Positions 4,225-64,000 are shown, numbered from the stretch's first letter. The stretch: 64,000 nucleotides of DNA from an uncultured Candidatus Berkelbacteria bacterium (GCA_963698075.1 OY969116.1:862131-926130); one strand, 5' to 3'. Notes: generated by a model not told the origin, from the letters alone. Program-made: numbers and translations.

Positions 4225-4247
4225 AATAAGATCTAAATAATACGAAA

Positions 4248-4285
4248 CAAGCCGCAGGCTCGAAAGCCTGCGGCTTGTATGTTGT
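4248..4285 (+). terminator. Rho-independent terminator after the membrane-protein gene
   Basis: GCCGCAGGC-TCGAAA-GCCTGCGGC hairpin followed by a T-rich run. Confidence 0.6.
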
Positions 4286-4306
4286 GTTCTCCACCTCCTT
4301 GTGGGG

Positions 4307-5632
4307 TTAGTGCGAAGGCCACTTCTCGCGGAATGGATCATCCGACTCCCGCGAGTAGAAGATGGCGATCAAGTGGCGCTGCCAGCCCATGAAGCCATCG
4401 GGCCAGAGGCGGACGTCCAGCCAATCCCCGGGCGGGACACGCATCGGCGGGTCAGCCCAGGGGTTTTCCCATACCCACATCTGCCAGGCATCGTGGATGT
4501 CAGTGCCAACGTTGTCCTTGCTCTGGCCGTTGAGTTCCCAGGAAGGCAGAGCCACCTTGAACTCCCGGGTCGGCAGGAAGGCTGGGGCGCGACTGCCATA
4601 GAAGCCCTCGCGGACCGTCAGGACAACCTCAGCTTTCGGATCGCGGGGAGACCTCTCGGCTTTGAAGACTTGGTATTCTCCTTGCCGAAGGTCCCAGGCC
4701 GAGTGAACGTAGTTCGGGCTGAATTTGGCCATGCCAGTGGTCAAGAGCCAAGCCGTCACCACCAGGCCGACTGCGAGATAGAAGCCGAAGGTCAGTCTCG
4801 CTATTTCCGGCTCGTTGTCCCAACCGCGCCGCAAGGGACCCTCGTGACTGACGCGAGCCAGCTCATAGCTCTTGATAAAGAGCGCCGAGCAGGCAAAGAC
4901 GAGCCAGTCGCGAGAGAGCAGAGAGTAGACCAGGGGCAGGGCCCAGTAGCGCTGTTCCATCAGTTCATAGAGGTGGCCGTGCCACTTAGGGTCGAGCTTC
5001 TTCTCCAAGATGTCTTCCGCCAGTCCGAGGACCAGGAGGACGACCAGAAAGGCGCCCGCCACGTTGAGCTCCAGGTTGATGGTCAGGAATGTCGGATTGG
5101 AGACGAAACTCTCGTGAAAGAACCTCGTCCCCACGAAGCTTCGGACCGCGAAGATGATCGGATCGGCCAAGAGAACCGCCAAAAGCATTACTGTCGTGGC
5201 CAAACCATGATTGGCGCGATCGATCTTTTCACGGACAAAGCAGACAAGGACCAAGGGAATCAGGAAATTGGCTAGGGGCGGGTGGGCGAGAATCAGGAGT
5301 GACCCCGCCAAACCCCAACCAATACCCAGGACCTTATCCGCTCCTCGAAACCAGACCAGACCGTGGTCGACGAGCAGGTCAGCCACCTTCATCTGGATAC
5401 CAAAGAAGATGGCCAGGGCTCCGACAAGGAGCTCTGTTGGGAGATACACCCCGGCGGCAACGATAGCGATGAGGCTAACCGTACCAGCCAGGGACACCAG
5501 GGCGGCAATATAGGTCAGACGACTGCGGGCCCAGGTGACGATTACAGGGACCCCGAGAACTCGGGGCATAGTCAGGCTTCTGACTGTCACAGCGTGCCTC
5601 CATATAGAGTCAAGGTTCAAATCGTCCCACAT
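4307..5632 (-). CDS. GC-rich (about 58%) polytopic membrane protein with a roughly 150-aa soluble C-terminal domain. Family not recognised.
   Basis: 441-aa ORF with coherent transmembrane-helix periodicity. A near-consensus promoter lies on the minus strand just upstream. Composition is foreign to the surrounding genome. Confidence 0.6.
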   Translation of the reverse strand: MWDDLNLDSIWRHAVTVRSLTMPRVLGVPVIVTWARSRLTYIAALVSLAGTVSLIAIVAAGVYLPTELLVGALAIFFGIQMKVADLLVDHGLVWFRGADKVLGIGWGLAGSLLILAHPPLANFLIPLVLVCFVREKIDRANHGLATTVMLLAVLLADPIIFAVRSFVGTRFFHESFVSNPTFLTINLELNVAGAFLVVLLVLGLAEDILEKKLDPKWHGHLYELMEQRYWALPLVYSLLSRDWLVFACSALFIKSYELARVSHEGPLRRGWDNEPEIARLTFGFYLAVGLVVTAWLLTTGMAKFSPNYVHSAWDLRQGEYQVFKAERSPRDPKAEVVLTVREGFYGSRAPAFLPTREFKVALPSWELNGQSKDNVGTDIHDAWQMWVWENPWADPPMRVPPGDWLDVRLWPDGFMGWQRHLIAIFYSRESDDPFREKWPSH

Positions 5633-5646
5633 CTTTGGGACATTGA

Positions 5647-5675
5647 ATTATAGCATAAATTGGTCTAAAAGTCAA
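5647..5675 (-). promoter_or_regulatory. Sigma70-like promoter for the minus-strand membrane-protein gene (TTGACT-17-TATAAT)
   Basis: The reverse complement reads TTGACTtttagaccaatttatgcTATAAT, about 15 nt before the ATG at 5632. Confidence 0.5.
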
Positions 5676-5773
5676 GGAATTATAATGCAGTTATAAGGAG
5701 GGATTTTGATAATATGTAAAGTTGACCTTTACTATGCTCAACACCCGCAAATCATAAAAATGTCAATACTCAC

Positions 5774-5809
5774 TTGACAAAATTGGTAAAATGTGATAAG
5801 ATGTGATAA
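5774..5809 (+). promoter_or_regulatory. Divergent sigma70-like promoter (TTGACA-17-TAAGAT) with tandem TGTGATAA repeats across the -10 element, followed by a roughly 75-nt hairpin-containing leader
   Basis: TTGACAaaattggtaaaatgtgaTAAGAT. TGTGATAA sits at 5792-5799 and 5802-5809. The leader hairpin is CAAGCG-GAAAT-CGCTTG. Confidence 0.45.
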
Positions 5810-5880
5810 TCAAGCGGAAATCGCTTGAGCGAACCTGAAAACCCGCCGGTGACGAGGTAAATCGGGAAAGGAGGTGGCCC

Positions 5881-6486
5881 ATGCGCTACCTGACAATAGC
5901 TGTACTGGTGGTAATGCTGTTGGGACTAGGGGTTTCTGCTTACGGGGCCCACGTTGAGGAGCCGGGGATCAACCTCGAGTCCATCAACATGGGTTACGAC
6001 CTCGAGCGGACCCCCGATGGCAACGAGACGACCGAGCTCTACGAGAACTTCTCGTTCTGCAACAAGACCTACCGAGTGAAGCTCTCTCTCGAGTACTACT
6101 CTGACGGCTATGACCGCTACACCCTCTACGCCGGCAAGAAGTCCAGCCCGACTATGGGACTGGTGCGCTGGGATGATTCGAGCCGCTTGTGGCTCGGCTT
6201 CAACCACGTCCAGCCCATCTCGAACGAGCTGACACTGATCCTCCGGCCGCTCAAAGGAGTCAATGCCGCCACCTGCGACCGCGCCTATCTCATCGCTGAC
6301 TACCAACTGAAGGGCGAACATCTGGGCGCGATGTTCCTGGCGGTGGGAATCGAGGGCGACGGCAAGGCCGAGGACTACTACCTTGGTCCCACTTACCGCG
6401 ATGGCGGCTGGAGCTTCTGGGCCGCCACACACCTGACCAAGGACGATTTCTACCTGGACGCCAGCTACTCAATGGCGTTCAAGTAG
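5881..6486 (+). CDS. Secreted protein (signal peptide MRYLTIAVLVVMLLGLGVSAYGA) with beta-rich composition resembling small outer-membrane proteins
   Basis: Signal peptide plus an AGGAGG RBS. GC-rich island gene. The beta-barrel-like assignment is inference only. Confidence 0.55.
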   Translation: MRYLTIAVLVVMLLGLGVSAYGAHVEEPGINLESINMGYDLERTPDGNETTELYENFSFCNKTYRVKLSLEYYSDGYDRYTLYAGKKSSPTMGLVRWDDSSRLWLGFNHVQPISNELTLILRPLKGVNAATCDRAYLIADYQLKGEHLGAMFLAVGIEGDGKAEDYYLGPTYRDGGWSFWAATHLTKDDFYLDASYSMAFK

Positions 6487-6510
6487 GGAACAACGACTAC
6501 TGACTAACCA

Positions 6511-6545
6511 GGCAGACAGGCCTTCAAACTTATGGCCTGTCTGCC
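6511..6545 (+). terminator. Perfect 12-bp stem terminator
   Basis: GGCAGACAGGCC-ttcaaacttat-GGCCTGTCTGCC followed by a T-containing tail. Confidence 0.6.
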
Positions 6546-6619
6546 CCATTTTCTCCTGATTCCATCCACGGATGGAGCCAGAAGACGAATGTTGTACCTG
6601 AACAAGGGAGGAAACCCTG

Positions 6620-6763
6620 ATGAACAAGAGATGGTTTCTTTTCGCCGTTATCGTCCTTGCCTGGATCGCTGTGGTTGTTCTGGGAGTCAAGTATGCCCCG
6701 TGGTCGTTTGCCGTCCTCGGCGGCGTCATCATTCTGCTCCTTATCTTGCGGAAGAGGAGGTGA
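6620..6763 (+). CDS. 47-aa hydrophobic membrane peptide (MNKRWFLFAVIVLAWIAVVVLGVKYAPWSFAVLGGVIILLLILRKRR)
   Basis: Below the ORF-track length cut-off. GGGAGG RBS 7 nt upstream. Its TGA stop is embedded in the RBS of the next gene. The overlapping long-frame ORF translates to low-complexity R/P/C-rich sequence. Confidence 0.5.
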   Translation: MNKRWFLFAVIVLAWIAVVVLGVKYAPWSFAVLGGVIILLLILRKRR

Positions 6764-6768
6764 GAGAG

Positions 6769-7413
6769 ATGATGAAGGTGCTTAGAGGCTCCTGCCTGGT
6801 TGCGAGTGGTGTGAAGGAGAAGGACGTATCCTCCTTCCTTCAGGAATGGGACCGGATAGGAGCGGAGCTGATTTCGGTAGAGAGGATCGGTATCAAGAAT
6901 CCTCGCTATCGAGTTCTCGCCTTCCTGCCCAATGGTCCGAATCATTCCTTTGCTTTGACCCACAGGTCTAAAGGCATTCACAATCTGGGTCAGGGCAAAC
7001 TGGTACGGAGCGAGACCGGAGCTGTCCGATTTGTGCCGGAGCGTTACCCCTACCCGGATGCCCAAGAAGTGGGTCGAGGTAGTAGCCGCGTAACCATGTA
7101 CACGGACCGGGACGGAAGGGTACACTTCAGCTTTCTGATACCCGGAACCCACTACCGGTGGCTGCACTGGATCGTTGATCCTCGCCGGATCGGTCCAAGG
7201 CAATTGCCATCAGGCTTTTTCCAATGGGACTTGGGTCTGCCCCAGCGCCGCCTGAGTTTACTAGCAAGTTTCGCGCTGGCGAAAGACACTGGGCGATGCC
7301 TGACACTCCACATGCAAGACCAGTACGGCAAGTTTCACGAACTTCCGGTCGAGAAGCGCGTGGCCAAGGTTCTTGGCCTTCGCGACTGTAACCCTCGAGA
7401 CGAGAGGAGGTGA
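6769..7413 (+). CDS. Hypothetical protein (214 aa) of the GC-rich island
   Basis: ATG preceded by GAGGAGGTGAGAGAG. Same frame as track ORF 6532..7413, but the region upstream of 6769 looks non-protein-like. Confidence 0.5.
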   Translation: MMKVLRGSCLVASGVKEKDVSSFLQEWDRIGAELISVERIGIKNPRYRVLAFLPNGPNHSFALTHRSKGIHNLGQGKLVRSETGAVRFVPERYPYPDAQEVGRGSSRVTMYTDRDGRVHFSFLIPGTHYRWLHWIVDPRRIGPRQLPSGFFQWDLGLPQRRLSLLASFALAKDTGRCLTLHMQDQYGKFHELPVEKRVAKVLGLRDCNPRDERR

Positions 7414-7418
7414 GAGAG

Positions 7419-8254
7419 ATGCCTGAAGAGCCCAAAGATGGCTATCTGATCATCATCAGAGATGTTCGGCACGGCGATTTCGTGGGACTGCTACCGCCTT
7501 TGTTCTGGCAGCCAACGGCGCGACTGTCCACTTGGTCTCCCGAAACGAAGAGAAGCTCGAGCAGATCGCCCACAACATCACCCATTTCCTTGAGGAGGTT
7601 AGGGAGGATCAAGTCGAACGATCAGCCGTTGATCTCCTTGATGAAGGGCAAGTCACGGCGTTCGTGGACGCCTTGCCGAAGAATAAACGGATCTTTTGGG
7701 TCCAGTCTATCGGCATGGGAGCCGGTACTTACCAACTCAAGGACGGAAACCCGTATCTGCATCTTGAGGATATCCCGCTCGAACTTCTTGAGCTGGAATC
7801 GACAACTGTGCTCAAGGGAACACACATCCTGATGCAGAAGCTACTGCCGGTGTTCCGTGAGCAAAACAGTCGCTTCGGAATGGAGACGAGGATTGCGATT
7901 GTAAGTTCGATGTCAGCAATCCGAGGCTATAACGTTGGCGGGACGCACTGCGCAGCCAAGGGCGCGATCAGCCGATATGCCAATGCGGCCATGCTCGACC
8001 TCTGGAAAGAAGGTATCTATGTTACCGATGTCAGGCCAGGGGTCGTCGACACCGGGATGTACGATTCGGAAGCGGTTCAGAAGGCAGTCCTGGAGATCGA
8101 CGCGGAATATGGCAATCACTGGAACCAGAATGGCCTTCAACTTGCTCCGCCCATCGCCGTCGGTTACGCCATCGCTACTGCGCTGACCATTCCCGCTCAC
8201 ATTCCGTCAATCAATCTGGTGGCGCAGGGGCAATTCCCGAACGAGGGGTCGTAA
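7419..8254 (+). pseudogene. SDR-family (short-chain dehydrogenase-like) gene that is frameshifted and degenerate
   Basis: The frame from 7419 encodes ...LIIIRDVRHGDFVG and then needs a -1 shift near 7486 to continue TATAFVLAANGATVHLVSRNEEKLEQ..., which aligns in register with the Rossmann region. The catalytic region reads SSMS...GGTHCAAK, with His in place of the Tyr of the YxxxK motif. Confidence 0.45.
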
Positions 8255-9792: not shown

Positions 9793-9875
9793 ACAAACTA
9801 CAACTTAAAGTATAAAGATGATATCATTTAAGTTTTTTCTTGAAGTTTTAACATTTGCGTTTTAAACTTTTAGTT

Positions 9876-10649
9876 ATGTATGTAGATACGCACGCCCATC
9901 TCAATTTTGAGGCGTTCGAAAAAGATTATCGTGATGTAATCAATCGCGCTTTGGCGGCTGATGTAAAGGGCATAATTAATGTTGGTTCTAATTTTGAAAC
10001 GTCAAAGAAAGCGATTGAGATCGCGGAAAAATATGACAAAGGGGTTTACGCCGCCATCGGTCTTCATCCGATCCACGTCAAGGATGAAGAGTTTGATGAA
10101 GCGGCTTTTTTGAAACTGGCCAAAAACAAAAAAGTCGTGGCGCTGGGGGAGACGGGCTTGGATTACTATTATGATAAGTCATCAGCCAAGCTTCAAAAAG
10201 AAATCTTTCGCAAATTTTTACAAATGTCGCATGCGGTTTCGAAACCCGTGATTTTACACTCGCGGGATGCCGGCGAGGATGTTTTGTCAGTACTGATGGA
10301 GGAGCGGCCCGAACCGCGGGGTGTGATGCATTGTTTTCCGGGCGATTGGCCGTATGCGAAAGTGATTCTGGATATGGGCTTATACCTTTCCTTCACCGGC
10401 CTCATCACTTTTTCTAAAAACTATGGAACTTTTGAGGTAATTAAAAATACGCCTTTAGATCGCTTAATGATTGAAACCGACTGCCCATTTATGACACCCG
10501 AGCCATATCGGGGGAAAAGAAACGAGCCAGCTTTTGTTATCGAAGTCGCCAAAAAAATCGCCGAAATAAAAAAATTACCTTTAGAAAAAGTTGCTGAACA
10601 AACTTCAAAGAATGCAATCAAACTTTTTAAATTAGAAATTAATGGTTAA
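9876..10649 (+). CDS. tatD: TatD-family metal-dependent hydrolase (DNase)
   Basis: DTHAHL start, a GxHP motif, and conserved His and Asp positions. Confidence 0.85.
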   Translation: MYVDTHAHLNFEAFEKDYRDVINRALAADVKGIINVGSNFETSKKAIEIAEKYDKGVYAAIGLHPIHVKDEEFDEAAFLKLAKNKKVVALGETGLDYYYDKSSAKLQKEIFRKFLQMSHAVSKPVILHSRDAGEDVLSVLMEERPEPRGVMHCFPGDWPYAKVILDMGLYLSFTGLITFSKNYGTFEVIKNTPLDRLMIETDCPFMTPEPYRGKRNEPAFVIEVAKKIAEIKKLPLEKVAEQTSKNAIKLFKLEING

Positions 10650-23577: not shown

Positions 23578-23898
23578 ATGATTTACATAATTATTGCTCT
23601 TATCGTTGGTTTTGGGCTCGGGTGGTTTTTGAAACCGAGAGAGAGCCGCCCCAGTGAGATACAAAAAAATCTCACGGGGCAAGGATTTATCAGCGAATCG
23701 GTGGAGAAGAAAGAGGAGAATTTAGCAAAAGCAAGAGTATACATTAAAGGCAAGGAAAAGATCACCAATGATGAGCTTCAAAAAGCCCTTGGCGTTTCCG
23801 ACGCAACAATTGTTAGATATTTAGACGAACTCGAAAAAGAAGGTCTCATTAAACAGGTCGGCAAAACCGGCAAGTATACTTACTACGAAGTTCTCTAA
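23578..23898 (+). CDS. Membrane-anchored winged-HTH protein (DeoR/MarR-like HTH at the C-terminus)
   Basis: N-terminal transmembrane helix. ITNDELQKALGVSDATIVRYLDELEKEGLIKQ is a classic wHTH. Confidence 0.55.
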   Translation: MIYIIIALIVGFGLGWFLKPRESRPSEIQKNLTGQGFISESVEKKEENLAKARVYIKGKEKITNDELQKALGVSDATIVRYLDELEKEGLIKQVGKTGKYTYYEVL

Positions 23899-39303: not shown

Positions 39304-40200
39304 TTAGTCACAAAATTTTTTGAGTTTGAGATTTTTATCAGCTTGAGATAAAGAATCAATGATTCTTTCTAAATTACCATCCATAATATTTTCGATTTTT
39401 GACCAAGATTTTTTGATTCTGTGGTCAGTGATTCGGTCCTGCGGAAAGTTATAAGTTCTAATTTTTTCTGAACGGTCGCCGGTGCCAATTTGGAGACGTC
39501 GATTTTCGCCTCGTTCTTTTTCTTGCTTTTCTTCTTCGAGAGCCAAGAGTCGCGAACGCAGGACCTTGAGCGCTTTTTCGCGATTTTTGATTTGTGAGCG
39601 TTCATCTTGGCAAGTGACAATCATGCCAGTGAGCAGATGAGTGATGCGGACAGCGGAATCGGTTGTGTTAACCCCCTGGCCGCCATGGCCGCGCGAACGA
39701 TAAACGTCAATGCGAATATCTTGAGGATTAATTTTAATATCAACCCCTTCGGCTTCGGGAAGGACGGCAACAGTGGCGGCCGAAGTATGTAGGCGGCCAG
39801 ATTTTTCAGTTTTTGGCACTCGTTGAACTCGATGAACACCTGATTCGAATTTTAAGTTTTCATAAGAACCTGGTCCAGTCACTTCAGCGGTTAGGTTTTT
39901 GATGCCTCCAAGCGATGTCCGGTCAGAATCTAAAATGCTGAAATACCAACCCTTTTTTTCGGCGAAGCGTTGATACATCCTTAATAATTCCCCGGCAAAA
40001 AGTTCAGCTTCATCCCCGCCAATGGCGGGGCGGATTTCAAGAAAGACATCCTGTTTAGTATCATTGGATGTCGTCATTTTGAGTGCATTACTTTTGATTG
40101 ATTCAATTTCTTCTTTGGCTAACTCGCGGATTGCGGGGTCATTGCTCGAGCGATATAGTTCTTCAGCTTCTTTGAGTTGCCTTTTTAGCTCTTCGTTCAT
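39304..40200 (-). CDS. prfA: Peptide chain release factor 1 (short form; tripeptide PKT in place of PAT/PVT)
   Basis: GGQ motif ([17 protein letters not shown]). [29 protein letters not shown] aligns with the RF1 PxT region. Confidence 0.8.
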
Positions 40201-40432
40201 TTTTTTTGCCTTTTTTTGCTCTCATTTCTTCGGCTTTTCTGACTCTACTTCGGAATTTATCGACTCGACCGGCGGTGTCAATAAATTTAGCAGTACCGGT
40301 ATAGAAAGGGTGACATGCTGAGCAAACTTCAACATGCAATTCAGGCACAGTCGAACCGACTTCAAAAGTATTGCCGCAAGCGCAGGTAACTTTGGTCCTA
40401 GGATAATACTTAGGATGTATGTCTTTCTTCAT
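40163..40432 (-). CDS. rpmE: Ribosomal protein L31 with a basic C-terminal extension
   Basis: [10 protein letters not shown]..., CxCG...CSxCHPFYTG. The 3' end overlaps the prfA start by 38 nt through an A-rich run. Confidence 0.8.
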
Positions 40433-40573
40433 AATAAGTCTTTTCTAAATGGGTGAATACTTGTCCCTCCGAAATTCGCACCGTCATAACAGAATGTAAT
40501 TCGTTTGACGGTAAAAATGAAGGGGGATCTTTTTTCATACGAAAATATTGTAGCACGAGATTCGTTTCATGTA

Positions 40574-40609: not shown

Positions 40610-40972
40610 CTAGTCCTTATCGGGAACGGCCGCAAAGTACAACAGCTTACAGTTTGGGCACCAGCCCATCAGATCGTTGTAGTATCGCTCCTCGCCGGTG
40701 GCGGTGAGAAATGCGACACAAATCATCAGCACTGGCATCTTACAACGAAGACAGTCAATGATAGGGTATCTGATAATCCTGCGCAGGATTCGCTGGGATC
40801 GGCTGACCTTGCGGATGAAGAGTCCAGTAATGTTTTCGCGGCTCAATCCTAGACTCTTCTTGGCAGAAGCCAACTGTTCCAATAACCCCACTATCTCGGC
40901 GTCTGGCATCCGCACGCCGAGCTCAGACTTCACCGGAATTCCGTCTACCAACCAACAGCGTCGTTCCATCAC
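40610..40972 (-). CDS. Sigma-70 region-4-like HTH fused to a C-terminal zinc ribbon (120 aa), GC-rich insert
   Basis: SLGLSRENITGLFIRKVSRSQRILRR resembles the sigma70_r4 HTH. The C-terminus carries two Cys pairs (CLRC ... CPNC). Confidence 0.45.
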   Translation of the reverse strand: MMERRCWLVDGIPVKSELGVRMPDAEIVGLLEQLASAKKSLGLSRENITGLFIRKVSRSQRILRRIIRYPIIDCLRCKMPVLMICVAFLTATGEERYYNDLMGWCPNCKLLYFAAVPDKD

Positions 40973-41505
40973 GGCTGACCTCCGAGTTGGGATGCCACTG
41001 CCGCCCGGCAGTGGGTTCAGCAGCCGAAAGGCCTATCCCATAACATCGGAAGATCATAACAACATGCCTATATGGCATTTTATTTCGATTGAGGAACAAT
41101 TGGCCCATGTGACCTTGCTAATATTAGCATAAACCTTGTCAAAAGTCAAGCCAGGCAAAGTCCGCTTTCGGCGGACCGCCTGGCGCAGACCCGGCAGATG
41201 ACACACTGCAATAACAGGACGTAGTCCGTTTTGCAGTAAGGAATTGTGCGGGGTCAAGGTAATCAATCCATTGATTAAGATTGCGGAATATGCTAAGATT
41301 TCTTTGCGGCGGGAAGCCATATATTTTTTAGTCATTATATATTAGAATAGTATTAAGCAACCGCATAAAGTTATGGCGGGTGCGGCCCCATAAAATTGCT
41401 TTCTTTGCAACCTATTACACAGTGTAAGCAAAGAAGCGCAATTTACGGGGCTTCCTGAACTTTCTTTCTGCTTTCGCAGAAGCGAAATTCAGGAGTGGAA
41501 GGAAT

Positions 41506-42246
41506 ATGCCGATGCCAAGCTTAACTGAATTACTTGAAGCCGGGGCGCATTACGGACATAAAAAAGAACGTTCATATCCCCGAGCCAAAAAGTTTACCTA
41601 CACAATCCGTGATAGTATTTATGTTATTGATTTGGAAAAAACCATTGCCCACTTAAAATTAGCTCTTGATTGGCTCCAACAAGCGACTCATTCGGGAAAG
41701 ATCATATTATTTGTTGGGACTAAACGTCAGGCAAAAGAAGCAGTCAAAAAAACCGCTCAAAATCTCAAGATGCCCTATATTGTCGCCCACTGGCTCGGCG
41801 GGACATTGACAAATTTCGAAACTATCAATAAAAGTTTAAAGAAACTTTCTGAATTAGATGAGCTTATAAAATCAGAGGATTTTGCCAAATATACGAAAAA
41901 AGAAAGAAAAAGAATCGAAGAAAAAAGAATTAAACTCAATGCTCTTTTTGAGGGCTTAAAAAATTTATCCAAATTGCCTGATATTTTATTCGTGGTTGAT
42001 ACCGCCAAGGAAAATGTGGCGGTGTTAGAAGCAAGACGGATGAATATTCCGATTGTCGGTATTTGCGATACCAACGCCAACCCAGATTTAATTGATTATC
42101 CCATCCCGGCCAATGATGATTCTGAAAAATCGATCAAGCTAATTCTTGGAAAAATAGAAGAAGGGTTAAAAGTGAAAAAAACCGAAGAAAAAGACGAAGA
42201 AGCTAAAAAGACGATCAAAAAAGTTTTTAAAAAAAGGAGCAAATAA
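41506..42246 (+). CDS. rpsB: Ribosomal protein S2
   Basis: Canonical S2 sequence. A TTGATT-17-TAAGAT promoter and a long leader hairpin lie at about 41440-41495. Confidence 0.95.
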   Translation: MPMPSLTELLEAGAHYGHKKERSYPRAKKFTYTIRDSIYVIDLEKTIAHLKLALDWLQQATHSGKIILFVGTKRQAKEAVKKTAQNLKMPYIVAHWLGGTLTNFETINKSLKKLSELDELIKSEDFAKYTKKERKRIEEKRIKLNALFEGLKNLSKLPDILFVVDTAKENVAVLEARRMNIPIVGICDTNANPDLIDYPIPANDDSEKSIKLILGKIEEGLKVKKTEEKDEEAKKTIKKVFKKRSK

Positions 42247-45919: not shown

Positions 45920-46009
45920 TTTTCAAAATTTTATACAAAAACCCCTGCGATTATGAGGGGTTTTTGTTATTGACAGAAGAACCATTTAATGATACATTTT
46001 TTTCTGTAC

Positions 46010-46530
46010 GTTAAGTTTACCCACCGTAGTCCCGCCAAGCGGGACGAAGGTGGGAATTAGAGATGAGGAAAGGGGGCAGCCATGGGTAGGTGGATAGCGA
46101 TTCTGCTGGCCATACTGGCCTTGATACTGGCCAGTGGGGTTCGATAATGATCGGGTAGCTGCGTCTGGGTGCGAGGTGCCGAGGAAGCACGATGCGTCGT
46201 GTGAGGCGAAGTCCCCGTCCTGGATAATGATACTCGAAAAAGGGTATCAGCCTCGCACCCTCGAGCTGCCAGGTTAAAAACCGGGGCTCGGGCCGAGCCC
46301 ACAAACCACAAGACACGGTGAGTTAAGATGGCATCCCGAAAGGGATAGCTACGACAAGCCGACTCCAACGTGGTTTACCACCAAAGAGGATACAAAGGTT
46401 TCGTTTCTGCTGGGGATGTTTCCCCAGTTGGTAACGGTTCCTTCCCCTGCCTGGTAGCTCTTTCGAGCCCGCGACGAAGCGCGGTCGCGCTTCGTCGCCT
46501 CATCCCTGATTCTTAAGATTTTAATGGCTC
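46010..46530. ncRNA. Candidate structured RNA of unknown class (GC about 57%, non-coding)
   Basis: No frame on either strand gives a protein-like translation. A closing helix GATGAGG/CCTCATC spans about 440 nt. Perfect hairpins include GCGACGAAGCGCG-gtc-CGCGCTTCGTCGC, ATCCC-GAAA-GGGAT, CTGGGGA-tgtt-TCCCCAG and GGGCTCG-ggc-CGAGCCC. There is a long-range pairing GGGTGCGAGG/CCTCGCACCC. I could not match RNase P or tmRNA consensus motifs. Confidence 0.35.
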
Positions 46531-46592
46531 ACCTCTTGAGCCGTTAGATTTAAGATAGACTTTGAACTAAAAGTGTGGTAAACTATCGCCAT

Positions 46593-48551
46593 ATGGAGTT
46601 TAAGATATCCTCAAAATTCAAACCTGCCGGTGATCAGCCGCAGGCGATTGACGAATTGGTGGCAGGTCTTAAGAAAGGCAATAAACATCAGACTCTTTTG
46701 GGTGTCACCGGTTCCGGCAAGACTTTTACGATGGCTAATGTAATTGAAAAAGTCCAGCGGCCAACTTTAGTAATTGCCCACAATAAAACGCTCGCAGCCC
46801 AATTGGCGGCGGAATTTCGCGCCTTTTTCCCCAACAGCGCGGTCGAATATTTTGTCTCCTACTATGATTATTATCAGCCCGAGGCCTATTTACCGACGAC
46901 TGATATCTACATTGAAAAAGAAGTTGAAATCAATGAAGAAATTGATCGTCTGCGGCATGCCGCCACCCAGGCATTACTCGCGCGGCGGGATGTAATTATT
47001 GTCGCCTCGGTCTCTTGTATCTATGGCTTAGGCAGCCCCGAGTTGTATCGCGAGAGCTTTTTAAGTTTAAAGATCGGTCAGCGAATATCACGCGACGAAA
47101 TTATCCATAAACTGATTGATTTATACTTTTCACGTTCCGAGATTCTCGGCCGGGGTAAGTTTCGCGTTCACGGCGAAATCATTGATATTGTGCCAGCCGA
47201 TCAGGAAGTCGTTATTCGTTTAGAAATACATTCCAATATTCTGCAGAATGTCGGAATATTTGATATGGTGTCGATGAGAAAATTGTTAGCGGAAAAAGAA
47301 ATTACACTTTATCCGGCCAAGCATTTTGTAGTTGATGAGCCGACGATGGCGCAAGCGATTGGCGAAATCGAGAAAGAATTGGAAGAAAGATTAAAATATT
47401 TTGAAAAAGAAGGCAAAATTATTGAAGCCGAACGTTTGCGTCGCCGCACCCGTTATGATTTAGAACTTTTGCGCGAAATTGGTTATTGTCCGGGAATCGA
47501 GAATTATTCGCGATACTTAACTGGCCGCCGCGAAGGCCAGGCGCCTTATACCCTCATCGATTATTTTCCCGAAGGCTATTTATTGATCATTGATGAATCA
47601 CACGTGACCGTGCCTCAACTTAATGGGATGTATGAAGGTGATAAATCGCGTAAAGATTCTTTGGTTGAACATGGGTTTCGTTTGCCGAGCGCTCGCGACA
47701 ATCGGCCGTTAAAATTTCCGGAATTTTTGGGCAAAATTAATCAAGTTATTTATACTTCAGCCACTCCGGCCAAATTTGAGCGGGAAAAATCAAACCAAAT
47801 CGTCGAACAAATTATTCGCCCAACCGGCTTAGTTGATCCGGAAGTTGAAGTTCGGCCAATTATTGGTCAAGTTGATGATTTAGTCAAAGAAATTCAAGAA
47901 AGAACTCGCCACGGCGAGCGGGTTTTGGTGACGACCTTGACCAAGCGTATGGCAGAAGATTTATCAGAACATCTCAAAGAAGCTGGCATCCGTGCCGAAT
48001 ATTTACATAGTGAAGTTCAAACTTTGGATCGGGTTGGGATTTTGGATAATCTTCGCAAAGGCGAATTTGATGTTTTAGTTGGCGTTAACTTATTGCGAGA
48101 GGGATTGGATTTGCCAGAAGTATCATTGGTGGCGATTTTAGATGCCGACAAAGAAGGATTTTTGCGAAGTGATGTTTCTTTGATCCAAACCATCGGTCGG
48201 GCGGCACGTAATGTCCGCGGTAAAGTGATTTTGTATGCCGATAACATCACCGGCTCAATGAAGAGAGCGATTTCGGAAACCATCCGCCGCCGCCAGATGC
48301 AAATTGAGTTTAATAAAAAACATCATATTACTCCCAAGACTATCCAAAAAGCGATTCAAACGATTATTGATCACGAACTCAAACCAGAAGTGACGCGCGA
48401 GTATATTAACCTCGAAAATTTAGAAGATGTCCCAGTTGTCATTAAAGCCAAAACTGAAGAAATGAAAAAAGCCGCTAAGGAATTGCGCTTTGAAGAAGCG
48501 GCTATTTTAAGAGATGAGATTGTTCAGTTAAAGAGATTAAGAATTAGATAG
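46593..48551 (+). CDS. uvrB: Excinuclease ABC subunit B
   Basis: Walker A GVTGSGKT and the helicase motifs. A TG-extended -10 (tgGTAAACT) lies 9 nt upstream of the ATG, suggesting a leaderless or short-leader mRNA. Confidence 0.95.
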   Translation: MEFKISSKFKPAGDQPQAIDELVAGLKKGNKHQTLLGVTGSGKTFTMANVIEKVQRPTLVIAHNKTLAAQLAAEFRAFFPNSAVEYFVSYYDYYQPEAYLPTTDIYIEKEVEINEEIDRLRHAATQALLARRDVIIVASVSCIYGLGSPELYRESFLSLKIGQRISRDEIIHKLIDLYFSRSEILGRGKFRVHGEIIDIVPADQEVVIRLEIHSNILQNVGIFDMVSMRKLLAEKEITLYPAKHFVVDEPTMAQAIGEIEKELEERLKYFEKEGKIIEAERLRRRTRYDLELLREIGYCPGIENYSRYLTGRREGQAPYTLIDYFPEGYLLIIDESHVTVPQLNGMYEGDKSRKDSLVEHGFRLPSARDNRPLKFPEFLGKINQVIYTSATPAKFEREKSNQIVEQIIRPTGLVDPEVEVRPIIGQVDDLVKEIQERTRHGERVLVTTLTKRMAEDLSEHLKEAGIRAEYLHSEVQTLDRVGILDNLRKGEFDVLVGVNLLREGLDLPEVSLVAILDADKEGFLRSDVSLIQTIGRAARNVRGKVILYADNITGSMKRAISETIRRRQMQIEFNKKHHITPKTIQKAIQTIIDHELKPEVTREYINLENLEDVPVVIKAKTEEMKKAAKELRFEEAAILRDEIVQLKRLRIR

Positions 48552-48648
48552 TAGATTTTTGATTTAATTAATGATATAATAACATCGCACATTTAATAAA
48601 TTGTATAGGGAAACCCGCGAAAAGCGGGTACTATTTGCGTTTATGTAC

Positions 48649-48718
48649 GACCCCAGCATAACTCCTTCCTGACTTATTGAACTACGTTCAATCACGCAGG
48701 AGCGTCGTATGCGGGGCA
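48649..48718 (+). repeat. Structured repeat R, copy 1 (about 70 nt, three nested helices, central palindrome TTGAAC-TAC-GTTCAA)
   Basis: Outer helix CCCCAGCATA/TATGCGGGG. Middle helix CTCCTTCCTG/CAGGAGCG. Inner hairpin perfect. Confidence 0.6.
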
Positions 48719-48767
48719 GGCAAAATCATCATGTATGACAAAATTATAATTCGCGGAGCTCGAGAAC

Positions 48768-48836
48768 ACCCCAGCACAAAAGCTTACTGGTTTACAGAAC
48801 TACGTTCTGTCACGCCGTGCGCTTTATGCGGGGCAA
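48768..48836 (+). repeat. Structured repeat R, copy 2 (diverged; inner hairpin ACAGAAC-TAC-GTTCTGT), 13 nt upstream of the uvrA ATG
   Basis: Same three-helix layout as copy 1, with compensatory base changes in the stems. Confidence 0.6.
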
Positions 48837-48848
48837 GTAATTTAAAAA

Positions 48849-51665
48849 ATGTTACAAAATATTATTATTAAAGGCGCGCGCGAACATAACCTGAAGAATA
48901 TCGATTTAGTTTTGCCGCGGAACAAATTTATCGTTTTTACCGGACTTTCCGGATCAGGAAAGTCGACTTTGGCGTTTGACACGATTTACGCTGAAGGTCA
49001 ACGTCGCTACTTAGAATCGCTTTCAAGTTATGCGCGGCAATTCTTAGGTCAAATGGAAAAACCCAATATCGAATCAATCGAAGGATTATCGCCGGCGATT
49101 TCAATTGACCAAAAAGCCGCCTCCCACAACCCCCGCTCAACCGTGGGCACGGTAACCGAAATCTATGATTATTTAAGAGTTCTTTTTGCTCGCATCGGCG
49201 TACCTCATTGTCCGATCGGCGGCGAGCCAATCACTAAACTTTCTGTCGAGCAGATGGTAGAAAGAATCCTCGACATCGGCGAAGACAATCAAATCAAAAT
49301 CTTGGCGCCAATTGTGCGTGGTAGAAAAGGCGAGTATCACACTTTGTTTGAAAATTTATTCAAGCAAGGATTTTCCAAAGTCCGCGTCAATGGCAAGGTG
49401 CGCAAACTTACCGAAAAGATTCCCTTAGAAAGATATGAGCAACACACCGTTGAAGTTTTAATTGACGAGGTCGAGGTCTCATCGGAAAATATCGCGCGAA
49501 TCACTGACGATATCGAACAGTCGCTCAAATTGGCTGACGGCTTGGTAACAATTGTTCATCAAAAAAATGAACAAACTTTCAATCAAAAATTATCTTGTCC
49601 GATTCATGGCGCCAGTATTCCCGAAATTGAGCCACGGATATTTTCATTTAATAGTCCTTTCGGCGCTTGCCCGGAATGCGATGGCTTGGGCGCCAAAAAA
49701 GAAATTGATGTCAACTTGATTATTCCGGATAAAAATTTATCAATTGCTCAGGGCGCAATTATGCCGCTTTCCTACAAACCCAATAATTATTACGGCGTGG
49801 TTTTGCGAGCGGCGGCTGACCGTCTGGGTTTTTCTGAACACACACCAATTTCCAACATGCCAGATGAAAGATTGAATGATATTTTGTTCGGCACTGGCGA
49901 TATCCAAACTTTGCGCATTCGCTACTGGACTCACGGTCAGGCACGGACTTTTTGGATTAATTTTGAAGGGATTATTCCTTTACTCGAACGCCGCTATCGC
50001 CAAACAGAATCTGACAATGTTCGCCGCGAGATTGAACGTTATATGAGCCAAACGCCATGTCCTCTCTGCCAGGGCGCGCGGTTAAAAAAAGAAAGTCTGC
50101 TAGTCAAAATCGCCGGTCAAAATATCTCCCAAGTGACAGCAATGTCAGTGGCTAAGGCCCTGGAATTTTTTGAAGGTTTAGAGTTATCAAAGCGCGAGAT
50201 TCTTATTGCCGAAAAAATCTTAAATGAAATCAAAAACCGCTTAAAATTTCTGGTCAATGTTGGCTTGGATTATTTGACTTTGGATAGAGCGGCGTTTACT
50301 TTGGCCGGCGGGGAAGCACAACGTATCCGGCTGGCATCTCAGATCGGTTCGGGGCTAGTCGGTGTTTTGTATATTCTCGATGAGCCATCAATCGGTTTGC
50401 ACGCCCGCGATAATATTCGTTTATTGGAAACTCTCAAACATTTGCGCGATTTGGGCAATACAGTTTTAGTCATTGAGCATGATGAAGAAACCATGCGCGA
50501 GGCAGATGAAATTGTCGATATCGGGCCAGGGGCCGGCAAGAGTGGCGGTCAAATTGTGGCTCAAGGAAACGCCGAGGATATTATCGCCAATCCCGAATCA
50601 ATTACCGGCCAATATTTGTCAGGCAAAAAGAAAATCGAAATTCCTGAAAGTCGCCGCAAGATTAAAGATAAATATCTCACTATCATCGGCGCTGGCGAAA
50701 ATAATTTGAAGAATCTCACCATCCATATTCCCTTGGGCGTTTTTGTTGGTGTCACCGGCGTCTCCGGCTCGGGCAAGTCAACTTTAGTCAATGAGATTTT
50801 GTATAAAGCCCTGGCCCGAAAACTGACGGGTGCTTTGGAACGACCTGGCAAACACGCCCGCATTGAAGGCGCGGAATTTTTAGATAAAGCCATTATTATT
50901 GATCAATCGCCGATTGGCCGAACCCCGCGCTCAAACCCGGCAACTTACACCAATCTTTTTACCCCGATTCGCGAACTATTTTCCAAAACCCGTGAAGCGA
51001 GAATGCGCGGCTATAGCCCCGGCCGTTTTTCTTTTAATGTTGCTGGTGGTCGCTGCGATAATTGCGAGGGCGATGGTTTGATCAAAATCGAAATGCATTT
51101 TATGCCCGATATATACATTCCTTGTGATGTCTGCGATGGCAAACGTTTTAATCGCGAAACCTTGGAAGTCAAATACAAAGAAAAAAATATCGCCGATGTT
51201 TTGGCAATGACGGTTGACGAAGCCTTGGAATTTTTCCGCGACATTCCCAAAATCGCCGATATTTTAGAAATTTTAAAAGACGTTGGTTTGGGCTATATTC
51301 ATTTGGGGCAGGCAGCAACGACTTTATCCGGTGGAGAAGCCCAGCGCGTCAAATTGGCCGAAGAATTGGCGCGCCGGGCAACTGGCAAAACCTTATATAT
51401 TTTAGACGAACCAACTACCGGATTGCACTTCGACGATATTAAAAAATTATTAGCGGTTTTACAAAGATTGGTTGATACGGGAAATACGGTTGTCATTATC
51501 GAACACAATTTGGACGTCATTAAACAAGTTGACTATATTATTGATTTAGGTCCCGAAGGCGGGGATGATGGTGGCCGCCTCATCGCCACTGGCAGTCCCG
51601 AAGACATCACCAAAATCGAAAAATCATATACTGGGCAGTATTTAAAAAAAGTCCTTAAAAAATAA
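48849..51665 (+). CDS. uvrA: Excinuclease ABC subunit A
   Basis: Two ABC ATPase modules and zinc-finger cysteines. 938 aa. Confidence 0.95.
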   Translation: MLQNIIIKGAREHNLKNIDLVLPRNKFIVFTGLSGSGKSTLAFDTIYAEGQRRYLESLSSYARQFLGQMEKPNIESIEGLSPAISIDQKAASHNPRSTVGTVTEIYDYLRVLFARIGVPHCPIGGEPITKLSVEQMVERILDIGEDNQIKILAPIVRGRKGEYHTLFENLFKQGFSKVRVNGKVRKLTEKIPLERYEQHTVEVLIDEVEVSSENIARITDDIEQSLKLADGLVTIVHQKNEQTFNQKLSCPIHGASIPEIEPRIFSFNSPFGACPECDGLGAKKEIDVNLIIPDKNLSIAQGAIMPLSYKPNNYYGVVLRAAADRLGFSEHTPISNMPDERLNDILFGTGDIQTLRIRYWTHGQARTFWINFEGIIPLLERRYRQTESDNVRREIERYMSQTPCPLCQGARLKKESLLVKIAGQNISQVTAMSVAKALEFFEGLELSKREILIAEKILNEIKNRLKFLVNVGLDYLTLDRAAFTLAGGEAQRIRLASQIGSGLVGVLYILDEPSIGLHARDNIRLLETLKHLRDLGNTVLVIEHDEETMREADEIVDIGPGAGKSGGQIVAQGNAEDIIANPESITGQYLSGKKKIEIPESRRKIKDKYLTIIGAGENNLKNLTIHIPLGVFVGVTGVSGSGKSTLVNEILYKALARKLTGALERPGKHARIEGAEFLDKAIIIDQSPIGRTPRSNPATYTNLFTPIRELFSKTREARMRGYSPGRFSFNVAGGRCDNCEGDGLIKIEMHFMPDIYIPCDVCDGKRFNRETLEVKYKEKNIADVLAMTVDEALEFFRDIPKIADILEILKDVGLGYIHLGQAATTLSGGEAQRVKLAEELARRATGKTLYILDEPTTGLHFDDIKKLLAVLQRLVDTGNTVVIIEHNLDVIKQVDYIIDLGPEGGDDGGRLIATGSPEDITKIEKSYTGQYLKKVLKK

Positions 51666-51721: not shown

Positions 51722-52159
51722 TTATGAAGGTTGAAAGATGGTGGCCCTATCAAACCGACTTAAGGCGCTGATAACTGCTTGATTGCGTTGTTCATAGTAC
51801 TCTTCAAGCGTGACGAACTCAGCAGCAATGGGAGATCCAGGAGTATCGGGGATCTTGACAAAGGAAATCCTGGGCTTGACTGGCCGGTGATATAGGTGAT
51901 GTGCCGCGATGTAGCCATCAACTATTCTTCGAACTTCTCGCTCGGGATGGTTACAGGCCCAGGTCAACAGAAATACAGGCTTGTTTTGGTCCTTGGGATT
52001 CGGCTCAACAACCATGGTAGCTTCTAACTCCAATGAAGCGGGAACTGCGAGATGGGCATTTCTTAACCGATTACGAATTGCTTGACTGTGACTTTGGGGG
52101 AATGAACAGTGATGAAGTACTGCTTGTCTAAGATCGAACGAAATTTCGTACTTCGGCAT
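51722..52159 (-). CDS. Hypothetical protein (145 aa) on a GC-rich insert between uvrA and uvrC
   Basis: Minus-strand ORF with shifted composition. No recognisable domain. Confidence 0.45.
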   Translation of the reverse strand: MPKYEISFDLRQAVLHHCSFPQSHSQAIRNRLRNAHLAVPASLELEATMVVEPNPKDQNKPVFLLTWACNHPEREVRRIVDGYIAAHHLYHRPVKPRISFVKIPDTPGSPIAAEFVTLEEYYEQRNQAVISALSRFDRATIFQPS

Positions 52160-52260: not shown

Positions 52261-53466
52261 ATGGAAAACGCAAAACTTTTATTCAAAATCAAAAAATTTC
52301 CTGACACCCCGGGTGTTTATATTATGCGCGATGCGCGACGGCGGCCCTTGTATATTGGCAAGGCGTCATCGCTCAAGCGGCGCGTCTTGTCGTACTTTCA
52401 GCGGCCGCAGGAGACGCGTTTAGAGCAAATGTTGGCGCGAGTATATAGTATCGAAACCAAGAAAACCGATTCAGTTATCGAGGCGCTGTTTTTAGAAAAC
52501 GAACTCATTAAAAAATATAAACCAAAATATAATGTCAAACTTAAAGATGATAAAACTTTTTTGGGCATTTTTATTACCCAAGAAGATTGGCCGCGGATTT
52601 ATCCGGCCAGAATTACCCAGAAATTACCAAAGGGCGAGTTTTACGGCCCATTTCCTTCAGCTGGACAAGTGCGCGAAGCCCTGCAAATTATCCGGAGAAT
52701 TTTTCCATTTAGAGTTTCCTGCACGCCTCTTTCTGGTAAAGCGTGCTTTGAATATCACCTGGGTCAATGCCCGGGGGTCTGCGCGGGCAAAATTAAGGTG
52801 CGAGAATACCAAAAAACGATTCATCAAATTAAATTATTCTTAAAAGGCAAAAAGAAAAGTGTTATTAAAGAACTTGAGAAAGATATGAGACAGGCGGCCA
52901 AAGACACGGATTTTGAAAAGGCGGCGAAAATTCGCGACCGAATTTTCGCTCTCCGTCACATCCAAGACGTTGCTTTAATCCAAGAAGAAGATCTGCGTCA
53001 TCCCGAAGATATTCCGAGCCGGATTGAAGCCTATGACGTCTCCAATATCTCCGGTTCTTTTGCTGTTGGTTCGATGGTTGTTTTTAGCGAAGGTTTAGTT
53101 GATAAAAGCCAATATCGCAAATTTAAGATCCAAATTTCCGAAGCTTGGAAAAGAGGGGCTGACGATGTCGCGGCCCTTAAAGAGATTCTCTCGCGCCGAC
53201 TTAATCATACCGAATGGCCATATCCTGATTTAATTTTAATCGATGGCGGCAAAGGACAAGTAAATGGTGCGCGCGAAATCTTAAAAGCCCGACGGCTTAG
53301 CATTCCGATCGTTGGTATTGCCAAAGGGCCGGAGCGGGATAAAGATGAAGTTATCGGTTTGGAGAATCTTCCCATCGATAAAAAATTGCTTCTGCGCGTC
53401 CGCGACGAAGCCCATAGGTTTGCCGTGCAATATTATCGGTTGAGACATAGAAAAAACTTAAAATAA
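52261..53466 (+). CDS. uvrC: Excinuclease ABC subunit C, short form (GIY-YIG + Cys motif + UvrB-interaction helix + RNase H-like endonuclease domain; no HhH tail)
   Basis: GVYIMRDARRRPLYIGKA is the GIY-YIG motif. A TTGCGA-17-TATAAT promoter overlaps the palindrome GCGATATATCGC. Confidence 0.8.
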   Translation: MENAKLLFKIKKFPDTPGVYIMRDARRRPLYIGKASSLKRRVLSYFQRPQETRLEQMLARVYSIETKKTDSVIEALFLENELIKKYKPKYNVKLKDDKTFLGIFITQEDWPRIYPARITQKLPKGEFYGPFPSAGQVREALQIIRRIFPFRVSCTPLSGKACFEYHLGQCPGVCAGKIKVREYQKTIHQIKLFLKGKKKSVIKELEKDMRQAAKDTDFEKAAKIRDRIFALRHIQDVALIQEEDLRHPEDIPSRIEAYDVSNISGSFAVGSMVVFSEGLVDKSQYRKFKIQISEAWKRGADDVAALKEILSRRLNHTEWPYPDLILIDGGKGQVNGAREILKARRLSIPIVGIAKGPERDKDEVIGLENLPIDKKLLLRVRDEAHRFAVQYYRLRHRKNLK

Positions 53467-63340: not shown

Positions 63341-63940
63341 ATGAAAGAAGACACAACTAATCAGTATTTAGTGCCGATGGTGCTCGAAAAAAGCCAGTTT
63401 GGCGAACGGGCGTACGATATTTATTCGCGATTGCTTAAAGACCGAATCATTTTTATCGGCGGGCCGATTGATGATGCGGTGGCTAATCTCGTGATGGCGC
63501 AGTTACTTTTCTTGGATGCTGAGGATCCGAAAAAAGATATTTCGATCTATATTAATTCGCCGGGTGGGGTAGTCACCGCCGGAATGGCAATTTATGATAC
63601 AATTCAATATGTTAAAGCTGATGTCTCGACGATTTGTATTGGTCAAGCCGCTTCCGCCGCCGCCATATTATTAACCGCCGGCACTAAAGGCAAACGCTAC
63701 GGCTTGCCTCAGTCTCGAGTGATGATTCATCAAGTGATGGGCGGCGCTGAAGGTCAGGCAACGGACGTTGAAATCCAAACCCGCGAGATTTTGCGAATTA
63801 AAAAAGCCATCAATGAAATCTTGGCCAAACATACCGGTAAAACACTGACAACAATCGAAAAAGACACTGACCGCGATTTCTATATGACGGCCGCTGAAGC
63901 GAAAAAATACGGAATCATCGATCAGGTTATTAAACAGTAG
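63341..63940 (+). CDS. clpP: ATP-dependent Clp protease proteolytic subunit
   Basis: Catalytic Ser in [11 protein letters not shown], plus the His and Asp positions. A TTGACA-17-TATACT promoter lies at about 63292-63320. Confidence 0.95.
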
Positions 63941-63945
63941 AAGCC

Positions 63946-64000
63946 AACCCCGTACAATTCCTTCCTGACTTATTGAATTACATTCAATCACGCAGGAGCG
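63946..64000 (+). repeat. Structured repeat R, copy 3 (partial; the window ends inside it), directly after clpP
   Basis: Near-identical to copy 1 except for compensatory changes in the inner hairpin (TTGAAT-TAC-ATTCAA). Confidence 0.55.

Follow-up and report, generated by a model that had tools for sequence, protein, structure and literature searches.

The start of the uvrA gene in a Patescibacteria (Candidate Phyla Radiation, CPR) contig has probably been interrupted twice by members of a dispersed family of hairpin repeats, with an intact start re-created downstream each time. The gene lies in a 64 kb stretch of DNA (OY969116.1:862131-926130), called the window from here on. The two repeats, R1 and R2, both stand in the 297 nucleotides (nt) that separate uvrB from uvrA. 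Numbers of the form L001 denote the loci of relatives, and numbers of the form P0001 denote UvrA homologue proteins. The coordinates of all features are collected in Table 1.

The stranded old start, the hairpin and the new start together form a recurrent and unusual gene-start architecture. The R family also marks horizontal exchange on the scale of a few dozen nucleotides in core genes. Patescibacteria genomes are very small and compact, and a family of hairpin repeats there appears to be new. Literature searches returned no description of one in this poorly explored phylum, with nothing relevant in the top 10 of 659 matches, and Rfam has no match, which is limited evidence.

Nested starts of uvrA

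In the 5' to 3' direction, the end of the spacer is a nested series: ATGTACGA, R1, CAAAATCATC, nt 1-38 of an old uvrA, R2, TAATTTAAAAA and finally the present ATG. The stretch between R1 and R2 (ATGTATGAC…GAACA) encodes MYDKIIIRGAREH, read from an ATG at 48731. The true ATG, at 48849, reads MLQNIIIKGAREHN. The first-pass annotation of this DNA had reported a second uvrA-like 5' end between the hairpins, and it is real. With 118 nt from one ATG to the other, they stand in different frames. The displaced start opens an upstream open reading frame (ORF) of 46 codons that ends at 48871 (ORF 48677-48871 in the ORF list).

The points of insertion are established by comparison with empty sites in relatives. 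They lie after codon 3 (site ii) and after codon 13 (site iii) of the uvrA frame, both within its first 40 nt. The usual arrangement, seen in L013 and L053, is that the leader hairpin is followed directly by ATG TAC GAY AAA ATT…. In L013 site ii is empty, and the leader runs straight into ATGTACGATAAAATTATTATT. Site iii is empty in L001, L002, L005 and L053. The net insertion there is 69 nt (CCCCAGCA…GGGGCAAG), without a target duplication. A remnant of the TAATTTAAAAA type is also present in L013 (CAATCTAAAAA), L031 (TAATCTTAACT) and L052 (CAATCTAAAAAT).

L052 was assembled independently, and its UvrA shares 89% identity with that of the window. It carries the same order of parts (R1-P-R2-Q), so this order is not an assembly artefact.

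The copy after R1 had been described as a diverged version of the true start. This has to be reversed: the middle copy is the ancestral one, and it is the present start that diverges. The 12 closest UvrA proteins (P0001-P0012, 80-92% identity) begin MYEKIIIRGAREHN, MYDKIIIRGAKEHN or similar, and these N-termini match the stranded copy, not the present start. With the functional 5' ends of L001 and L002, the stranded 38 nt share 87-89% identity. Over nt 1-63, the present gene is only 65-68% identical to its own clade, against 79-86% for nt 64-2400. Compared to L053, which is from another clade, the same 63 nt are 84% identical, and the rest of the gene 74%. By these comparisons the middle copy is native and the present first 63 nt are foreign.

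Given that nt 1-63 are closer to L053 than to the gene's own clade, the first 21 codons of the present uvrA were imported. The crossover is near nt 64, where the highly conserved LPRNKFIVFTGLSGSGKS-coding stretch begins. L052 has a different new 5' tract behind R2, with a joint that is 1 nt longer, which shows this tract to be unusually variable.

The same layout recurs elsewhere. It begins with nt 1 to x of a gene, continues with R and with the 8-17 nt of the gene that come next, and ends in a complete new 5' end. At uvrA site ii it is found in the window, L001, L002, L041, L052 and L012, and at site iii in the window, L052, L013 and L031. At yebC (L027, L033) it reads MSGHSKWS / R / QIK(HRG) / new MSGHSKWSQIK…, and it is also present at fic (L020, L040) and at a CAP-domain gene (L016). 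The differences between the old 5' end and the new one are mainly synonymous, as expected for orthologues of different lineages. In L033 nearly every third codon base is changed with the peptide kept. A long target-site duplication is ruled out as the source of this layout, since the 8-17 nt after R continue the gene (NLKN, QIKHRG, TNK) and are not taken from the left flank.

Three further observations concern these starts. Translational bypass, or in-frame read-through of R to make UvrA, was considered and discarded; it is needless given the complete start downstream, and R1 contains a stop. R causes start-codon miscalls: the database UvrA of L052 (P0002) begins MRGKQSKN…, from an ATG within the 3' arm of the hairpin (TATGCGGGGCAAG, L052 189-212). 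In L005, the R1 position (9875-10000, after …CTACGA) holds an inverted repeat of some 97 nt, AT-rich and unrelated to R, with the uvrA start behind it, so site ii seems to have been hit there by a different element.

A dispersed family of hairpins

R1 and R2 are members of a non-coding, dispersed family of hairpin repeats of about 69-85 nt, with copies at no fewer than 30 different loci in Patescibacteria. The family resembles repetitive extragenic palindromic (REP) elements and miniature inverted-repeat transposable elements, or MITEs. An exact-pattern scan with the conserved ends was run on species-representative genomes and metagenome loci. It matched 9 loci in species genomes (Saccharibacteria, Saccharimonadales, Berkelbacteria and other Patescibacteria) and 37 metagenome loci. 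Multiple contigs of one genome were matched. Two chance matches (a rubredoxin gene and an archaeal contig) and duplicates were excluded, which left 34 distinct R sequences. All 34 fold as long hairpins.

In the window, the end pattern CCCCAGCA-N40-60-TATGCGGGG occurs twice, against 0 occurrences in 100 shuffles. A covariance model (CM) built from 19 R sequences finds copies that this strict pattern missed. It gave 37 matches at E<0.01 in the loci searched, including three more in the window, for a window total of five R copies and a weak sixth match. The copy at the very end of the window has the outer helix CCCCGTAC instead of CCCCAGCA.

The neighbours of R are diverse. Pfam confirms yebC, fic, rsmH, ligA, a glutamine amidotransferase (GATase) and a CAP-domain secreted protein, as well as tsaB, which in L008 has a copy inside it. 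Three window ORFs near R copies would be clpP (63341-63940), rpmE (40163-40432) and rpsB (41506-42246), read by eye from their translations. Translation reading also puts one copy after the stop of an ORF with an ABC-transporter-like C-terminus, and a second copy in L013 7 nt upstream of a uvrC-like ORF. Other copies are found in short intergenic spacers or in a 5' untranslated region (UTR; L039). Two, in tsaB of L008 and at the N-terminus in L044, are in frame inside a gene and involve no duplication. Most copies have sense orientation and stand shortly upstream of a start codon; some are antisense.

Searches in existing collections gave little. Rfam 15 has no match in the window at gathering score, and none at E<=10 over 48552-48900. 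A scan of viral contigs for R gave no match. The peptides encoded by R were compared to 5.8 billion proteins, which returned one 42-aa ORF only. The first-pass annotation had offered a REP-like element as its fallback, and this was essentially right.

In both hairpins a triloop caps the apical helix of 7 bp, below which come a middle helix and an outer helix with a bulged A. The fold energies of R1 and R2 are -28.7 and -27.8 kcal/mol (z -4.0 and -3.5). A pair of three-helix structured elements upstream of uvrA is thus confirmed by sequence and folding. The compensatory stem changes between R1 and R2 hold up too; the apical stems are TTGAAC/GTTCAA in R1 and ACAGAAC/GTTCTGT in R2, exactly as first noted.

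These changes extend to the whole family, where helix covariation is present as well. An alignment of 41 distinct copies was fitted to the covariance model, a procedure which favours the structure. In it, 88% of pair cells hold standard pairs versus 71% when shuffled, and 16 of 22 pairs have double-sided changes. The covariation score is 0.325, versus 0.04-0.05 with the 3' partners slid. An independent MAFFT/RNAalifold analysis finds double changes in 8 of 16 pairs. All seven apical pairs covary.

The base of the hairpin is conserved as CCCC-A-GCA/UGC-GGGG-CAAG, with invariant flanks A-CCCC…GGGG-CA(A/G)G that are partly set by the search pattern. As a guide to the strand that folds, one T·G pair is conserved (35 of 39); the other pairs show G·T 11 times versus A·C 19 times, which is no excess. 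Both strands of R fold as DNA, and the folded form may be RNA or single-stranded DNA. Two simple identities were tried for such a hairpin and rejected. An intrinsic terminator would have a U-tract, which is absent, and the 3' flank is A-rich; an integron attC-like site would have RYYYAAC/GTTRRRY cores, and there are none.

The window also contains a 'mini' R base at 23648-23686 (+), CCCCAGTGAGAT-ACAAAAAA-ATCTCACGGGGCAAGG, with the same foot and CAAGG tail on a short stem.

What does it mean that there are two R's in front of one gene? It had been proposed that a 118-bp unit, R plus the uvrA start, was duplicated locally in tandem and diverged in place, with selection keeping the hairpins. The spacing from the start of R1 to that of R2 is indeed 118 nt, the two units share the order of their parts and align end to end along their full length, and L052 has the pair too. 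Yet R1 and R2 are 74% identical to each other in the family alignment, versus 88-96% between each of them and copies at other sites or in other genomes. R1 is 99% identical to L041 and 96% to L002, both at the same site, 91% to L033 (yebC), 89% to L037 and 88% to L014. R2 is 96% identical to L013 at the same site, 95% to L039 (the uvrA 5' UTR site), 93% to L012 (site ii) and 89% to L015, an unrelated locus. By sequence, R1 and R2 are of different subfamilies. Relatives carry R1 alone (L001, L002, L041) or R2 alone (L013). The piece of uvrA that follows R1 (nt 9-18) is not the one that follows R2 (nt 39-49), which means the elements sit at different positions in the gene. The uvrA part of the second unit, moreover, is the one that is closer to another clade than to its own. 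All this makes a local duplication very unlikely. Copies at one site need not share one history either: the copy in L001 at the R1 site has a different interior and is 66% identical to that of the window, from which it follows that same-site copies can be replaced or converted by other family members.

The apical stem also suggested a function. R1 and R2 each contain the palindrome GAAC-TAC-GTTC, which had been put forward as possibly the SOS operator of the lineage; it would then be a LexA-type box that represses uvrA. The palindrome is perfect, it occurs twice upstream of a classic SOS gene, and just one other GAAC-N3-GTTC is found in the 64 kb, within a coding region and not upstream of a gene. 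The likeness to the Gram-positive LexA box, GAAC-N4-GTTC, is this GAAC…GTTC palindrome upstream of uvrA. The spacing in R differs, being 3 and not 4, and the window has no GAAC-N4-GTTC. The motif is also not conserved as sequence; it is the top of a covarying stem, and copies both orthologous and paralogous have GAAT..ATTC, GAAA..TTTC or unrelated tips in its place. Where the window has GAACTACGTTC, the orthologous L002 copy has GAATTACATTC, a double compensatory change. Further copies have GAAATACTTTC, GAATTCCATTC, CCCCGCCAAGCGGGG or CCTATTCCATAGG. Scans for R find copies that adjoin genes other than those for DNA damage, without the enrichment at SOS genes that an operator would lead one to expect: yebC, fic, rsmH, GATase, the CAP-domain gene, ligA, tsaB, rpmE, rpsB and clpP have a copy, and in the window uvrB has none upstream. 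L005 lacks R upstream of uvrA. A tblastn search for a LexA-like ORF found no match in the window, a weak point given that it covers 64 kb only and used an approximate query. Because the tip covaries as a stem and the copies are unrelated to DNA-damage genes, the LexA operator is rejected, with hardly any probability left to it. Another regulatory role is that of a dedicated cis-regulatory RNA of the uvrA mRNA, be it a leader, a riboswitch or a protein-binding element. R is in the 5' UTR, 3' of a conserved leader, it has strong covariation and a conserved base, and its orientation is mostly sense, with a start codon just downstream. Against this, the same element is found at many unrelated genes, after stops (clpP, the ABC transporter), inside coding sequences (tsaB, L044) and in some cases antisense. 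Close relatives can have swapped interiors at one site, as the L001 copy demonstrates, neither L005 nor L053 has R upstream of uvrA, and Rfam has no match. A dedicated cis-RNA is improbable.

How gene starts may be restored

The comparisons show that R interrupts the uvrA frame at two points in its first 40 nt, that the interrupted starts survive, and that the working start is a foreign replacement; the process that leads to this layout can only be inferred. Each insertion would have parted the start codon of the time from its gene. An intact 5' end would then have been re-created 10-11 nt 3' of the hairpin, leaving behind the nested fossil series. The restoration would have come from recombination with an uninterrupted uvrA allele of a related lineage, with one crossover in the conserved Walker-A-coding region (about nt 64 onward) and one microhomology joint (A/AT) about 10 nt 3' of the hairpin. 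With R so near the 5' end, there would be too little homology on the left for a clean repair. A single crossover plus a microhomology joint would be the result, with the old start and R left stranded. Homology-facilitated illegitimate recombination has one homologous anchor and one microhomology joint.

The block of R, about 10 nt and a new 5' end is flanked by uvrA on both sides, and could from then on spread by ordinary homologous recombination. This would explain why, in the window, the left copy is native and the right one foreign. In the mRNA the hairpins are probably mere passengers of a 5' UTR of about 260 nt. They may play a part in mRNA stability or in translational coupling.

Several things weigh against interruption followed by such a repair. 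No transposase or nuclease tied to R was identified, and the window contains no Y1 gene. No target-site duplication or conserved target motif was established either; the search pattern fixed the flanking A and AA. The supposed intermediate, a uvrA allele with an in-frame R and no duplication, was not found. Either insertion or duplication may have come first. Finally, in 9 of 11 cases no more than 8-12 nt part the new start from the hairpin, and the duplicate usually begins exactly at the ATG. Chance recombination accounts for neither. Both could come from a specific break site, from selection for expression, or from later deletion.

If there is a specific break site, R may take an active part in recombination. 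An enzyme specific for structure, either a nuclease or a recombinase (such as HUH/Y1), would nick the DNA some 10 nt 3' of the hairpin, and foreign 5' ends of the adjacent gene would be captured as the break is repaired. The joints at 8-12 nt come from independent cases at uvrA (two sites), fic (two) and the CAP-domain gene, which is what such nicking would give. Behind the same R site, the new 5' tracts of the window, L052, L013 and L031, which are close relatives, differ greatly and their joints are displaced by 1 nt, and the tract in the window is demonstrably foreign. Y1 genes adjoin uvrA in L005, L013, L050 and L053, but these have other flanking hairpins and none is in the window, so no enzyme is linked to R. 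No conserved cleavage motif was shown, and selection for expression or later deletions would give the same layout. An active site is rather unlikely, if worth keeping in mind. If true, it would be a hitherto undescribed route, here in Patescibacteria, for a tiny repeat to cause localised allele capture at the starts of housekeeping genes. Recombination steered by hairpins, with gene starts replaced as a result, would be a new mechanism.

The Y1-like genes deserve a description of their own. They are about 220 aa long, resemble IS200/RAYT-like Y1 genes, and are located at L005 12888-13556, L013 3995-4660, L053 5940-6635, L050 3386-3508 and L002 16417-17079. In L005, L013, L050 and L053 they are directly 3' of uvrA; the 64-kb window has no such gene. 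Those examined (L002, L005, L013) have TTAACC…hairpin…GGTTAA flanks of their own, unlike R. Since the flanking hairpins differ, R is not supported as the cognate repeat of the adjacent Y1 transposase. The same TTAACC…GGTTAA REP-like hairpin is also found between uvrB and uvrA in L005. Two orphan ORFs in the window are placed where relatives have Y1 transposase-like genes: 51722-52159 (-), of 145 aa, and 40610-40972 (-), of 120 aa (CxxC…CxxC). The latter is surrounded by three R-like copies. Neither has a Pfam domain.

The family can be compared with several known systems. R resembles REP/REPIN elements, MITEs and Rickettsia palindromic elements (RPE), but it fails defining features of each.

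REP/REPIN elements are mobilised by RAYT (Y1 HUH) transposases (PMC3116915, PMC3337134). In common with R, they are short (about 70-110 nt), imperfect long hairpins with a conserved base and a variable middle. They too have many dispersed copies per genome, mostly intergenic, with no target-site duplication seen, and Y1-transposase-like genes are present in related genomes. R differs in having no GTAG-type tetranucleotide; its conserved flank is a 3' CAAG tail and a bulged A. In the loci examined, no RAYT is flanked by R, as the Y1 genes have flanks of the TTAACC…GGTTAA type. R is also often found inside gene 5' ends with a duplicated gene start, which to our knowledge is not a REPIN trait.

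RPEs, reviewed in PMC10969869, are likewise small palindromes inside protein genes that are read in frame, as R is in tsaB (L008) and at the L044 N-terminus. The net insertions of R at uvrA and yebC are 69 or 81 nt. Translated in-frame copies of R are the exception (two cases, and one 42-aa ORF in the peptide search), and most copies are non-coding. Disruptive 5' insertions of R come with a replacement gene start, which is undescribed for RPEs.

The bacterial MITEs include Correia, ERIC, BOX and RUP (PMC10969869). These also measure some 70-150 nt, have terminal inverted repeats, form RNA or DNA hairpins, are co-transcribed in UTRs, and can alter the starts and expression of their neighbours. 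In R the terminal inverted repeats, CCCC(A)GCA / TGCGGGG, are the outer helix. Unlike MITEs, R has no target-site duplication, as judged from filled and empty uvrA and yebC sites (net 69 or 81 nt), and, in the loci examined, no parent insertion sequence (IS) with matching ends. The host group, Patescibacteria, is new, and the layout of 5' fragment, R and new 5' end is unusual. IS200/IS605-type ends (PATE) insert 3' of a fixed tetra- or pentanucleotide; the left flanks of R have no common tetranucleotide. The insertion points look like A|YAA(A/T), which is partly fixed by the pattern.

Integrative elements that bring a replacement target-gene end (attL/attR duplications) and homology-facilitated illegitimate recombination in natural transformation (both named in PMC6382021 and PMC8116780) have in common with R a displaced native end beside a foreign functional copy, and one homologous and one non-homologous junction. 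With R, by contrast, the intervening unit is a 69-nt hairpin and about 10 nt only, without an integrase.

The locus and other features

The gene order is proS, uvrB, uvrA, uvrC (52261-53466), and it is the same in relatives. NCBIfam confirms the identities of uvrB, uvrA and uvrC. The closest UvrA homologues all come from metagenome-assembled genomes (MAGs) of Patescibacteria, Berkelbacteria or Saccharibacteria. No exact copy of the window UvrA is on record. A tRNA/tmRNA scan found none.

Table 1 Features of the window, with coordinates counted from its first letter (CDS, coding sequence).
Feature	Coordinates	Strand	Evidence or remark
uvrB CDS, 658 aa, upstream neighbour	46575..48551	+	NF003673 UvrB, 1017 bits
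Extended -10-like box TGATATAAT, putative uvrA promoter	48572..48580	+	about 7 nt 5' of leader start GCACATTT (48587)
Conserved uvrA leader	48587..48642	+	small hairpin ACCCGC-GAAAA-GCGGGT at 48613-48629
Oldest uvrA start remnant ATGTACGA (Met-Tyr-Asp), truncated by R1	48643..48650	+	insertion site ii, between D and KIII
R1, 70-nt hairpin repeat, core CCCCAGCA...GGGGCAGG, subfamily CTCCTTCCTG...CAGGAGCGTCGT	48651..48720	+	CM score 92.4 bits
CAAAATCATC, remnant of uvrA nt 9-18 (…K I I), 10 nt after R1	48721..48730	+	compare CAAAATTATA (48739-48748), TAAAATTATT in L013
Displaced native uvrA 5' end, nt 1-38, MYDKIIIRGAREH	48731..48768	+	truncated by R2 at site iii, between REH and NLKN
R2, 69-nt hairpin repeat, core CCCCAGCA...GGGGCAAG, subfamily AAAGCTTACTGG...CCGTGCGCTTT	48769..48837	+	CM score 85.6 bits
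TAATTTAAAAA, remnant of uvrA nt 39-49 (…N L K), fused to present ATG	48838..48848	+	identical to L001, L002 nt 39-49
uvrA CDS, 938 aa	48849..51665	+	NF001503 UvrA, 1509.7 bits
Foreign replacement tract, first 63 nt of present uvrA (MLQNIIIKGAREHNLKNIDLV)	48849..48911	+	DNA identity comparison
Diverged R copy, 25 nt upstream of ORF 40163-40432 (-)	40457..40528	-	CM 22.5 bits, E 0.005, filters off
R copy	41183..41254	-	CM 33 bits, E 1e-4 and 2.6e-5
Diverged R-like hairpin, weak match, 55 nt upstream of ORF 41506-42246	41386..41451	+	CM 19 bits, E 0.03
R copy, 7 nt after stop of ORF 63341-63940	63947..64000	+	CM 45 bits, E 2.9e-7; cut by window end

The leader upstream of R1 is kept in L001, L002, L005, L012, L013, L039, L041 and L053. 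Its hairpin varies compensatorily among relatives (TCCGC/GCGGA, GCCGCGC/GCGCGGT). In L001, L002 and L005 a -10-like box is found at the same distance from GCACATT. A scan for two-hexamer promoters did not call the box in the window, which stands as a putative uvrA promoter.

In L001 (1-195), the leader abuts the C-terminal end of a reverse-transcriptase-like ORF (…GIDFLGYVV…) in the place of uvrB, by a reading of the translation by eye. This raised the idea of a diversity-generating retroelement, which was rejected: the differences between uvrA starts are not adenine-specific and include indels.

A number of minor observations come from elsewhere in the window. Positions 4000-8000 have 53-56% G+C, versus about 42% in the remaining window, and could be an island of foreign DNA. 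A GC-rich non-coding stretch of about 570 nt (45990-46560, +) lies between uvrB and a small acidic ORF. This ORF comes with a terminator-like hairpin at about 45940-45968, behind which is a promoter-like site, TTGACA-17-TACATT. The predicted RNA fold of 45990-46560 has an energy of -262 kcal/mol (z = -9.5 versus shuffles). This makes it a candidate for a large structured RNA; Rfam has no match for it, and nothing similar is found in the loci of relatives. A small hairpin motif, AATGGCTCAC…TGAGCC(G/A)TT, is common to window 46516-46545, L005 9778-9810 and L005 1715-1745. These hairpins lie where non-coding stretches end and may be another repeat or terminator family.

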